A DNA stretch of 64,000 nucleotides from Octopus vulgaris (Eukaryota): positions 49,104,001 through 49,168,000 of the forward strand of contig OX597817.1 in the NCBI GenBank assembly GCA_951406725.2, written 5' to 3'. Positions 7,109 to 44,130 of the stretch are shown here, piece by piece. The notes under the pieces are model-generated. The model did no database searches, was not told the origin of the DNA, and was given only the letters and a program-made list of their open reading frames with translations. The position numbers and the translations under genes are program-made. Positions within the stretch are counted from its first letter, which is position 1. Every line of letters starts with the position of its first letter.

Positions 7109-7522
7109 CGGCAGCGAGCTGGCAGAATCGTTAGCACGCCAGGCGAAATGCTTAGCAGTATTTCGTCTGCCGCTACGTTGTGAGTTCAAATTCCGCCGAG
7201 GTCGACTTTGCCTTTCATCCTTTCGGGGTCGATTAAATAAGTACCAGTTACGCACTGGGGTCGATGTAATCGACTTAATCCGTTTGTCTGTCCTTGTTTG
7301 TCCCCTCTATGTTTAGCCCCTTGTGGGTAGTAAAGAAATAGGAATTTCGTCTGCCGTTACGTTCTGAGTTCAAATTTCGCCGCGGTCGACTTTGCCTTTC
7401 ATCCTTTCGGGGTCGATTAAATAAGTACCTGTTACGCACTGGGGTCGATGTAATCGACTTAATCCATTTCTCTGTTCTTGTTTGTCCTCTCTGTGTTTAG
7501 CCCCTTCTGGGTAGTAAAGAAA
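7109..7522 (+). mobile_element. SINE family C with internal tandem duplication (~185 bp)
   Basis: Head GGCAGCGAGCTGGCAGAATCGTTAGCACG; body GTCGACTTTGCCTTTCATCCTTTCGGGGTCGAT occurs at ~7200 and ~7385. Confidence 0.85.
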
Positions 7523-7674
7523 TATATATTCACATCCAATACCACTCCATATATGTGTGTGTGTGTGTGTGTGTCTGTACTTGCGTGTATATATAAACGA
7601 GATGAATGTTTCAAAAACCGCTTTTCAAAAAGAAGAAAGAAAAACGAAATAGCGTGTATCTTGCACGATATATA

Positions 7675-10120: not shown

Positions 10121-10230
10121 GATCTTCATTAAAACTTAATGTTAGTCAGGAGTTGTCCTCCTGTGTCGTGTACATCAGCGACTTGCTTATTTGTACATTA
10201 TTTACATTTGTCCTCATCTTCTTTGTTGTT

Positions 10231-10276
10231 AAGACAACGTTTCGGCTAATATACCCTCCAGCCTTCATCAGGTGTC
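10231..10276 (-). ncRNA. Minimal type I hammerhead ribozyme motif (Penelope-like)
   Basis: Minus: gacac-CTGATGA-a-GGCTG...TAGCC-GAAAC-GTT-gtctt; palindromic AACGTT stem III. Confidence 0.7.
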
Positions 10277-10323
10277 ATGGAGAAATTTCGAACCTGGGTT
10301 CTTATTCCTAAGGTATTTTGTGA

Positions 10324-10383
<60 letters not shown>

Positions 10384-10419
10384 CATTATTATTATTAATA
10401 ACCCCTACGCCATATGCCC

Positions 10420-10492
10420 GGGCATATGGCGTAGTGGTTAAGAGCGCGGGCTACTAACCCCAAGATTCCGAGTTCGATTCCAGGCAGTGACT
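10420..10492 (+). ncRNA. tRNA-derived (Ile-AAT-like) Pol III head, not a functional tRNA
   Basis: A box TGGCGTAGTGGTT, B box GAGTTCGATTCC; GGGCTACTAACCCCAAG resembles tRNA-Ile GGTGCTAATAACGCCAAG; no acceptor stem. Confidence 0.65.
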
Positions 10493-10778
10493 TGAATAAT
10501 AATAATAATAATAATGATAATAATAATAATAATAATAATATCGAAAAATACCTCAGGAATGAGAACCCGGGTTCGAAATTTTCCCCAAGACACCTTATGA
10601 AGGCTGGCGGGTATATCAGCCGAAACGTTGTATTAACAACAAACAAGAAGAGGACTAATATACGTCAAATGTAAATAATGTAAATAATGTACATAATTCT
10701 TCATCTCTTAAATATAGAATTGCTTATTTGTGTTCCCATCTACTGGAACGTAATAAAAATAAGTATACAAATCATAAT

Positions 10779-30648: not shown

Positions 30649-30681
<33 letters not shown>

Positions 30682-30969
30682 CGACGGGCTTCTTTCAGTT
30701 TCCGTCTACCAAATCCACCTACAAGGCTTTGGTCAGCACTTGCCCAAGGTGCCACGCAGTAGGACTGAACCTAGAACCATGTTTACATATATACGACGGG
30801 TTTCTTTCAGTTTCCGTCTACCAAATCTACTCACAAGGCTTTGGTCGACACTTGCCCAAAGTGCCACGCAGTGGGACTGAACCTGGAACCATGTGGGTCG
30901 TAAGCAAGCTACTAACCACACAACCACTCCTACCCCTATATATGGCTAGATTCAATGCTAAAGGGTTAA
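30171..30969. mobile_element. piggyBac-type MITE interrupted by SINE A (30375-30935, minus)
   Basis: Ends ttgaCCTTTTAGCATT ... AATGCTAAAGGGttaa (TTAA target, CCCT-type TIR). Confidence 0.65.
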
Positions 30970-36914: not shown

Positions 36915-37041
36915 AAAATTTCCACTTATTTTACCGATGAGTGTGTTAAATAATAAGGTACTAAAAGAGAATGACTCTCCCCAGACACAACTGTATATAT
37001 ATATATATATGTATACATATATGTATATATATATGTATATA

Positions 37042-37115
<74 letters not shown>

Positions 37116-37537
37116 TATGTTTATACTGATCGTTGTAGCGAGAATGCCTTTGATCATAACTTAATTCCATTATGGCAAATTTGGAGTTAAGTGACAGCAA
37201 AAATAACCACATATTGTGTAAACCAGTTAACCACATATTGCATGTATCTGCAATCATTGTAAACATATGTAGTATTGCATGCGTTATGCATACTATAAAG
37301 AAATCATGAATGGTATGTTTCCAATTAAATTTCATTCAATTTAAGCAACTTTCTAGTTCCCAGTTCTAAGTTTGAGAGATGAGGAATTATGTACATTATT
37401 TACAATTGACGGATATTTGTCCTCTTTTATTTGTTGTTAACACAACGTTTCAGCTGATATGCTCTCCAGCCTTTATCAGGTGTTTTGGGGGAAATTTCGA
37501 ACCTGGGTTCCCACTTCTAAGGTATTTTTCGATGTTG

Positions 37538-37571
<34 letters not shown>

Positions 37572-37850
37572 GGTTACTGTCTCGAATCGAACTCGGAATC
37601 TTGGGGTTAGTAGCCCACGCTCTTAACCACTACGCGATATGCCCACGGGCATATAGCGTAGTGGTTAAGAGCGTGGGCTACTAACCCCAAGATTCCGAGT
37701 TCGATTCCAGCAGCAGTGAACTGAATAATAATAATAAAAATAATAATAAAATTTCCACTTATTTTACCGATGAGTGTGTTAAATAATAAGGTACTAAAAG
37801 AGAATGACTCTCCCCAGACACAACTGTATATATATATATATATGTATATA

Positions 37851-37941
<91 letters not shown>

Positions 37942-38359
37942 CTATGTTTATACTGATCGTTGTAGCGAGAATGCCTTTGATCATAACTTAATTCCATTAT
38001 GGCATATTTGGAGTTAAGTGACAGCAAAAATAACCACATATTGTGTAAACCAGTTAACCACATATTGCATGTATCTGCAATCATTGTAAACATATGTAGT
38101 ATTGCAGGTGTTATGCATACTATAAAGAAATCATGAATGGTATGTTTCCAATTAAATTTCATTCAATTTAAGCAACTTTCTAGTTCCCAGTTCTAAGTTT
38201 GAGAGATGAGGAATTATGTATATTATATACATTAGACGGATATTTGTCCTCATTTGTTTGTTGTTAACACAACGTTTCAGCTCATATGCTCTCCAGCCTT
38301 CATCAGGTGTTTTGGGGTAAATTTCGAACCTGGGTTCCCACTTCTAAGGTATTTTTCGA

Positions 38360-38413
<54 letters not shown>

Positions 38414-38590
38414 GGTTACTGTCTCGAATCGAACTCGGAATCATGGCGTTAGTAGCCCACGCTCTTAACCACTACGCGATATGCCCACGGGCATATAGCG
38501 TAGTGGTTAAGAGCGTGGGCTACTAACCCCAAGATTCCGAGTTCGATTCCAGCAGCAGTGAACTGAATAATAATAATAAAAATAATAATA
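36915..38590. repeat. Local tandem duplication, unit ~833 bp
   Basis: 36915-37747 repeated at 37748-~38590, including unique spacer sequence. Confidence 0.9.
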
Positions 38591-38611
38591 ATGATAATGA
38601 TAATAATAATA

Positions 38612-38649
<38 letters not shown>

Positions 38650-38800
38650 AACTTCGAAAAATACCTCAGGAATGAGTACCTAGGTTCGAAATTTCTCCAA
38701 GACACCAGATGAAGGCTGGAGAGTATATCAACCGAAACGTTGTGTTAACAAGAAACAAGATGAGGACAAATATCCGTCGAATGTAAATAATGTAAATAAT
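37360..38800. mobile_element. Palindromic tRNA-head/(TAA)n/hammerhead element, copies B (37360-37745, partial) and C (38190-38800)
   Basis: Head-to-head tRNA-like units 37573-37722 and 38414-38563; HHR motifs at ~37439-37485 (-), ~38266-38311 (-, intact core) and ~38701-38746 (+). Confidence 0.85.
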
Positions 38801-39132
38801 GTTTCTACTTTCCATTAACTTGAAAATAAAGAGATAATAAGTAGTTCGAATAAATCATTCTTTGTTTTCTCAAGGCCCTTTTTTTACGTTTTGTATGTAG
38901 TCAGTCGGTTTCTTTTGTAGAACCACTAGGTCACAGAGAGGTAAGCAAACTAACACCGGTTGTCCAGTCATGGTGGACAAACGAAAACGCAAATGCACAC
39001 ATACATACATACACACACACACGCACACACACACACATATATATATACATATATATGTGTATATATGTGCATATACATACATATACATATATAAATGTAT
39101 ATATATATATACATATATACATGCACCCTCTC

Positions 39133-43429: not shown

Positions 43430-44130
43430 ATTGAAGGCTAGAAAATTTGAGAGGAGGGACAAGTCGATAACATCGACTCTAGAACTTGACTGGTACTTTG
43501 TTATATCGACCCCGAAGGGAAGAAAGGCAAAGCTGACTTTAGCGGAATTTCAACTCAGACGTAAAGAGCTGGAAGAAATACTGATTGGCGTTTTATCCGA
43601 CGTGCTAAAGATTATTTTCTGTTCTAGGCACAAGGCCCGAAATTTTGGGGGAGGGGACCAACCAATTAGATCGACCCCAGTACGCAACTGGTACTTAATT
43701 TATCGACCTCTAAAGGATGAAACCTTTTCTACTCTAGGCACAAGGCCCGAAATTTTTGGGGAGGGGCCAGTCGATTAGATCGACCCAAGTACACAACTGG
43801 TACTTAATTTATCGACCCCGAAAGGATTAAAGGCAAAGTCGAACTCGGTGGAATTTGAACTCAGAACGTAGCGGCAGACGAAATACCTATTTCTTTACTA
43901 CCCACAAGGGGCTAAACACAGAGGGGACAAACAAGGACAAGTCGATTACATCGACTCCAGTGCGTAACTGGTACTTATTTAATCGACCCCGAAAGGATGA
44001 AAGGCAAAGTCGACCTCGGCGGAATTTGAACTCAGAACGTAGCGGTAGACGAAATATCGCAAAGCATTTCGCCCAAAGTGTTAACCATTCTGCCAGCTCG
44101 CAGCCCTCGACGTGCTAAAGATTCTGCCAA
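43430..44130 (-). mobile_element. SINE family C multimer
   Basis: Several tandem body and tail modules. Confidence 0.8.

Follow-up and report, generated by a model that had tools for sequence, protein, structure and literature searches.

The closest described systems are the EN+ Penelope/Poseidon Penelope-like elements (PLEs), represented by Pen2a_Av from Adineta vaga (PMC3846280) and by the green anole element PAc (PMC11167929), in which an inverted pseudo-LTR (pLTR), a tail of 30-40 nt at one end and a target site duplication (TSD) of ~10 bp occur together, and the pLTR contains the first ORF codons, a hammerhead at the ORF start and a short palindrome at its 5' end. Inverted pLTRs with a tail at one end and a TSD have already been published for PLEs (PMC3846280; PMC8557442), as have nicking and extension of both target strands with two internal RT starts (PMC11167929). 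The minimal type I hammerheads of metazoan PLEs are described with an unpaired base before helix II, a G-C closing pair and palindromic positions 15.2-16.2 without loop 3, and in Schistosoma opposite-strand hammerhead pairs lie 100-700 bp apart (PMC4209133). A Pol III-type promoter followed by a hammerhead is found in the Sm-alpha/Sj-alpha hammerhead SINEs of Schistosoma (PMC6765202), and a small-RNA-derived Pol III promoter lies in the terminal repeat of the TRIMp3 elements Cassandra, Helenus and Ajax (PMC10886601).

The Octopus vulgaris family described here shares the features listed for Pen2a_Av and PAc, for the minimal PLE hammerheads and for the two Pol III-type systems, and departs from each of them. 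Unlike Pen2a_Av and PAc as they are described, the octopus pLTR starts with a tRNA-derived A/B-box head followed by (AAT)n, in contrast to the TATA/Inr-type promoter of Pen2a (PMC3846280), and pLTR-only pairs greatly outnumber ORF-bearing copies. The available part of the account of minimal PLE hammerheads (PMC4209133) reports no tRNA head; the octopus hammerhead is a predicted ribozyme. Sm-alpha/Sj-alpha are head-to-tail repeats freed by cleavage (PMC6765202), whereas the octopus has head-to-head pLTR pairs and a template that appears uncut, and TRIMp3 are non-autonomous LTR elements with autonomous partners expected to use Pol II (PMC10886601), whereas the octopus head sits in a coding element. 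The tail-out layout of the pLTR pair is known, and the unusual part is the tRNA-type promoter in the pLTR of a coding element. Among the papers listed by literature searches, none was seen to describe a tRNA head as part of a coding PLE's pLTR, and Repbase or Dfam may hold the family; 'Twhin' is the name of an octopus SINE that may or may not be this family. Such a head is also absent from the available part of an octopus repeat annotation (PMC13282606), whose repeat library may hold the family.

The window, which is the whole 64-kb stretch of DNA that was analysed, contains at positions 10183-10731 two outward-pointing (tail-out) arms within a 12-bp TSD. Within the window, the TSD motif has exactly two occurrences (10183-10194 and 10720-10731), with ~3 nt at each TSD end matching the element as well, and insertion as one unit, as the earlier note had proposed, is upheld. 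Each arm comprises, in this order, a tRNA-like head, (AAT)n and a body that contains a minimal hammerhead. On the reverse strand, the short arm consists of a body at 10195-10327 that arm alignment identifies as a Penelope ORF start without tail, bears an 11-nt deletion and falls in the 138-162 short-end class; an (AAT)n tract at 10328-10398; and a head remnant at 10399-10419, in which positions 1-21 remain, in agreement with the partial deletion that had been noted. On the forward strand, the long arm begins with a tRNA-Arg-like head at 10420-10494 (A box 10427-10437, B box 10470-10480, tRNA comparison), continues with (AAT)n at 10495-10536 and ends with a body at 10537-10722 that holds the first Penelope ORF codons (ATG at 10559), as judged from the in-frame continuation in locus L258 and the alignment with the N-terminus of an independent full-length protein, and a tail of 35-40 nt. 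The left minimal type I hammerhead (10231-10276, reverse strand; motif scan and family-form fold) has an intact core and a mismatch in the middle of stem I, and the right one (10589-10634, forward strand; predicted cut after 10629) has a G5 mutation and reads CTTATGA, as had been seen before, therefore both ribozymes of this copy are damaged.

The inverted arms are 82% identical over 10187-10288/10577-10678 and 92% identical over 10283-10369/10495-10581, and the unit folds with z = -28.6 relative to 100 shuffles. The two arms of the palindrome described in the earlier note are not symmetric: only the right arm carries the tail. This copy lacks a 2-nt spacer between the two heads that is present at 20 of 37 head-to-head junctions. 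ARAGORN and Rfam recognised neither the head nor the hammerhead in this unit, and both were identified by motif, fold and comparison. The family has a second insertion at 37361-38805, which is present twice: it was doubled by a local duplication of ~700-800 bp (window 37000-38640) that copied part of it, one copy being without the right body. Tandem dimers of other short interspersed repeats are also present in the window, at 7160-7524, 30675-30894 and 43615-43831, with periods of 184, 112 and 109.

Copy number was estimated from 120 evenly spaced 10-kb stretches (1.2 Mb), which contained 15 clusters with head or body; this corresponds to ~35,000 copies (95% range 20,000-58,000), or 0.4% of the DNA of the 2.8-Gb genome. 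Most of the other family loci were chosen by similarity, not at random. Arms diverge from the majority sequence by ~4.4% with CpG excluded. Across 93 clusters, taken from loci that were picked by search or sampled, 53 of 59 pairs of adjacent bodies point tail-out. Of 52 two-armed copies, 30 are flanked by an exact repeat of at least 8 bp, a count that omits the window's own TSD (gap), compared with 2 of 300 shuffled pairs; these TSDs average 11.5 bp, range from 8 to 18 bp and are 75% AT. The outer ends fall into two classes, 138-162 and 182-187, and among 66 two-armed insertions 63 were long+short, 3 short+short and none long+long, with long+short also in 6/6 insertions of the evenly spaced sample and 12/12 of the centre-picked loci. 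Long copies share the tail-out build (11/13 long+short). The one-long-one-short arrangement is the known Penelope 'tail', which in the anole element is linked to two RT start sites (PMC11167929). Apart from the number of 9-bp repeats, nothing was found to differ consistently between long arms and short ones.

The copies that were collected do not show the fixed palindromic architecture for which the earlier note proposed a test. Junctions at the centre vary, arms differ by no arm-specific variants, and the centre occurs in both polarities with respect to the long arm (5 versus 11, one of these a local duplicate, and 2 ambiguous); these observations exclude a fixed master. Lone arms flanked by a repeat of their own also occur: a repeat of at least 9 bp flanks 3 of 11 single-strand clusters compared with 1 of 110 controls, although one of the three retains 16 nt from a second arm. 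Later deletion may account for many of the odd junctions. A recurrent centre junction at head position 17, within a 5-bp inverted repeat of the head (L002, L017, L046, L307), could have arisen by later deletion or by template switch. The (AAT)n tracts often carry insertions of other repeats (L003, L007, L009, L010, L131, L147, L150).

At four loci, the centre is occupied by other sequence that reads as the end of a Penelope ORF. A search with this ORF-end sequence returned 30 loci (including the query locus, three near-identical duplicates and one locus mis-oriented in the analysis), in 28 of which the stop codon is followed ~30 nt on by the same head, and the ORF end also leads to the head in 20 of 25 protein-picked loci. 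The arm body corresponds to the first 55 codons of the ORF and its 9-bp repeats are codon triplets. In L258, the frame that opens with an ATG at body position 23 leads from the body into the ORF, and this frame matches the N-terminus of an independent full-length protein of 847 aa at 40% over 211 residues. Because the ORF end runs to the head and the body runs in frame into the ORF, the arms are very probably the pLTRs of an autonomous Penelope-type retrotransposon in the same genome, which bears out the idea of Penelope mobilisation. The head, the repeat and the hammerhead were already united in this autonomous pLTR, therefore the SINE/ribozyme chimera of the earlier note is not supported.

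The partner ORF gives RVT_1 matches below the curated cut-off and has 799 homologues. Its C-terminal piece aligns to an 836-aa Anolis protein, perhaps PAc, with an E value of 4e-13 (endonuclease homology), and Pfam GIY-YIG had no match on this decayed piece. As in EN+ Penelope-like elements, RT and C-terminal endonuclease are in a single ORF, the pLTR spans the ORF end and the ORF start, copies are inverted and 5'-truncated with a tail on one end and a TSD, and the pLTR contains a hammerhead by motif and fold, without an Rfam match. With regard to a possible place in the Penelope/Poseidon clade, partner translations have no CxxC (Zn-finger-like) linker, unlike L177, and in direct comparison are 38-39% identical to the Anolis protein versus 32% for L177. 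A GIY-YIG family with 781-aa frames was considered as the partner and rejected, as it had no match to head or body and its hammerhead differs. Loci L177-L200 (e.g. L177:1-1794) hold an abundant Neptune-type PLE family that has many 781-aa open frames and looks young; its hammerhead variant has U3-A8 covariation and a palindromic 4-nt loop 3.

The tRNA derivation of the heads is sustained by their best match, tRNA-Arg(TCG), among 30 tRNA loci covering six isotypes (score 64 versus a shuffle maximum of 48), and like SINE2 heads they contain A and B boxes. Divergence within the head is 2.6% in the B box, 5.6% in the A box and 5.3% in the rest, so the A box shows no extra conservation over the remaining head. 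Arms joined to other sequence mostly retain 0-12 nt before the head. In L266, seven tRNA-Cys-like genes are clustered within 3 kb.

Runs of four T (T4) on the sense strand are absent from 6 of 8 long copies, the other two having two each at unshared sites, and no T4 site is shared between copies in the coding part of ~2.8 kb (at most 2 copies per site, with low depth in the 5' part, median 5). One body site near position 43 has T4 in 23 of 180 arms. Over 2805 coding nt, no T4 run was observed compared with 3.9 expected from the element's own codon usage (P 0.015) and 5.7 under a second codon control (P 0.001), whereas 7 runs occur in 1791 nt of the Neptune-type control, and 1-4 per 680 nt in nine further GIY-YIG loci. 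A Penelope/Poseidon family without a tRNA head was not found as a T4 control, since all 25 best protein matches belong to the octopus family described here. The tRNA-Arg-like A/B-box head and the terminator-free sense strand are sequence features that point to Pol III, and we lean towards the element being transcribed by this polymerase. The protein might then come from Pol II read-through of some copies, which is a plain guess.

For the formation of the palindrome, we consider it likely that the tail-out pLTR pair results from one insertion event within a TSD, with probably two target-primed cDNAs copied off an RNA that probably starts at the head; that two priming events are involved appears quite likely. 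The start of the RNA would lie ~0-12 nt ahead of the head, Pol III acting from the A/B boxes being its most likely source, and transcription would run through the terminator-free ORF. The RT-endonuclease would nick both target strands, with one cDNA beginning at the tail site and the other at an inner site. RT starts on the first pLTR copy of the RNA would produce 300-nt arms ending at the head, and starts on the second copy would produce long 5'-truncated copies. The two cDNA ends would then join via other microhomology or via a short inverted repeat native to the coding element, where it stands just ahead of the head; this repeat is what forms the palindrome centre, with the two heads 2 nt apart.

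Several observations bear on this proposal. Only 1 of 15 sampled head/body clusters has an ORF end, therefore most cDNAs would end at the head; an RNA start at this point, with RT beginning on the first of the pLTR copies, would predict this. Some templates ran into the ORF, as indicated by pieces of its 5' part in the middle of L061 and L142. Derived non-CpG variants are common to both arms of a copy at 42 of 7018 sites, more than in all 2000 shuffles (27 of 5320 in the body alone), which suggests that both arms often come from one source locus, and gene conversion could contribute. Concordance is partial for the commonest variant (5 in both arms, 5 in a single arm), and several variants are confined to one arm. 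Palindrome-type leaders of 8-12 nt are present in about nine arms, several retaining 9-12 nt, with that of L168 directly inside the TSD; they suggest that some short palindromic copies were themselves templates.

The last observation, together with the scarcity of ORF ends, would also be expected if the palindromes were self-sustaining non-autonomous units, that is, a Penelope-mobilised SINE with a Pol III RNA whose self-complementary leader regenerates the palindrome. We regard this as unlikely, even though L120 and L129 have two variants in common in both arms, and (AAT)n is longer in ORF-free than in ORF-linked arms (median 47 vs 24 nt). No position distinguishes the 121 ORF-free from the 43 ORF-linked arms by a fixed difference, their divergence is 5.7% and 6.7%, respectively, and the commonest variant occurs in both arm sets (16/90 ORF-free and 8/30 ORF-linked arms covering the site). 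A SINE2 lineage is distinct from its partner and shares only the 3' part with it, whereas here the whole arm is present in the partner. Native-type leaders occur too (L098, L107, L124), and the central ORF 5' pieces are those of templates extending into the ORF. In addition, the protein of the anole element depends on a part of the ORF that lies past the tail (PMC11167929), and this part may be missing from inserted arms.

Less probable still is a fold-back origin, which has been proposed for rotifer PLEs (PMC3846280), with a single cDNA self-priming on the inverted repeat before the head so that the second arm is a copy of the first. The native inverted repeat at the centre and the variants common to both arms fit such an event, but the centre reads both ways, several variants are found in a single arm, and the ORF-bearing arm is the long one in some insertions and the short one in others, with a head-only partner (L239, L246, L259).

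The hammerhead bears on the proposal that the unit is a fixed palindromic SINE/ribozyme chimera, producing 200-nt RNAs in both directions that are ended by self-cleavage, which we now consider very improbable. The family hammerhead lies in the first ORF codons, and its fold comprises stem I of 5 bp, stem II of 6 bp and a palindromic, loop-less stem III as in Penelope motifs; the earlier identification of a Penelope-type minimal hammerhead was correct. Its core letters are less diverged than the remainder of the body (2.8% vs 4.2%, P 0.003), all 11 are kept in 101 of 183 arms, and the commonest core variant (33/185) is at the free N7 position and is also a conservative codon change. Constraint on the hammerhead in source elements is plausible from these sequences, but core conservation is confounded because the core overlaps coding sequence and is A-rich. 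Ends do not cluster at the predicted ribozyme cut (GUU): instead of position 92 they occupy 138-162 or 182-187, positions 81-100 hold only 1 of 208 body ends, and only 2 of 54 truncated arms start at 92-94. Copied templates extend 45-95 nt beyond the cut, and with no end class at this site the self-cut 3' ends that had been predicted are unsupported. Both ribozymes of the copy at 10183-10731 are damaged, as described above. Dimers of such motifs reportedly cleave (Lunse et al.). Minimal motifs do not cleave as monomers (PMC4209133), and for the anole element the uncut RNA is the substrate and the hammerhead needs protein (PMC11167929). The hammerhead thus appears to be a passenger of the pLTR on a template that is not cut.

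Other hammerhead-like motifs were seen among the loci. Another repeat has a U3-A8 hammerhead-like motif (L046:4528-4725, L066:7469, L074:2073), of which L046 has two copies 200 bp apart on opposite strands, and a lone minimal hammerhead with a short stem II and the same palindromic stem III belongs to another family (L081:5416).

A palindrome with a TSD might bring to mind a MITE, or another type of DNA transposon that has long terminal inverted repeats, but this reading can be dismissed, as the arms are the end repeat of an RT-coding element, and the ends are unequal in 63 of 66 insertions and the TSDs vary in length where equal terminal inverted repeats and a fixed TSD length would be expected.

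The strict one-long-one-short rule fits the two RT start sites observed in vitro (PMC11167929). Each copy, if read through, is predicted to fold into a long hairpin and is a possible dsRNA source, and dsRNA undergoes heavy editing in octopus and, in the case of Penelope, in lizard (PMC5625713). With tens of thousands of copies, the family is a large natural test of how Penelope inverted ends form, a step that the papers cited here call unresolved.

The usual view is that autonomous retrotransposons are transcribed by Pol II, with SINEs as their Pol III parasites. The fullest reading of the octopus family, which we put forward tentatively and with some doubt, is that a coding retrotransposon captured a tRNA-Arg promoter, purged the terminators from its 2.8-kb ORF, became wholly Pol III-transcribed with a 5' end that is a built-in SINE, and shed ~35,000 twin-primed palindromes. 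If this is true, a coding element that lacks terminators and has a tRNA promoter of its own would make the distinction between autonomous elements and SINEs less sharp, and would represent one route for a SINE to arise from inside its partner.
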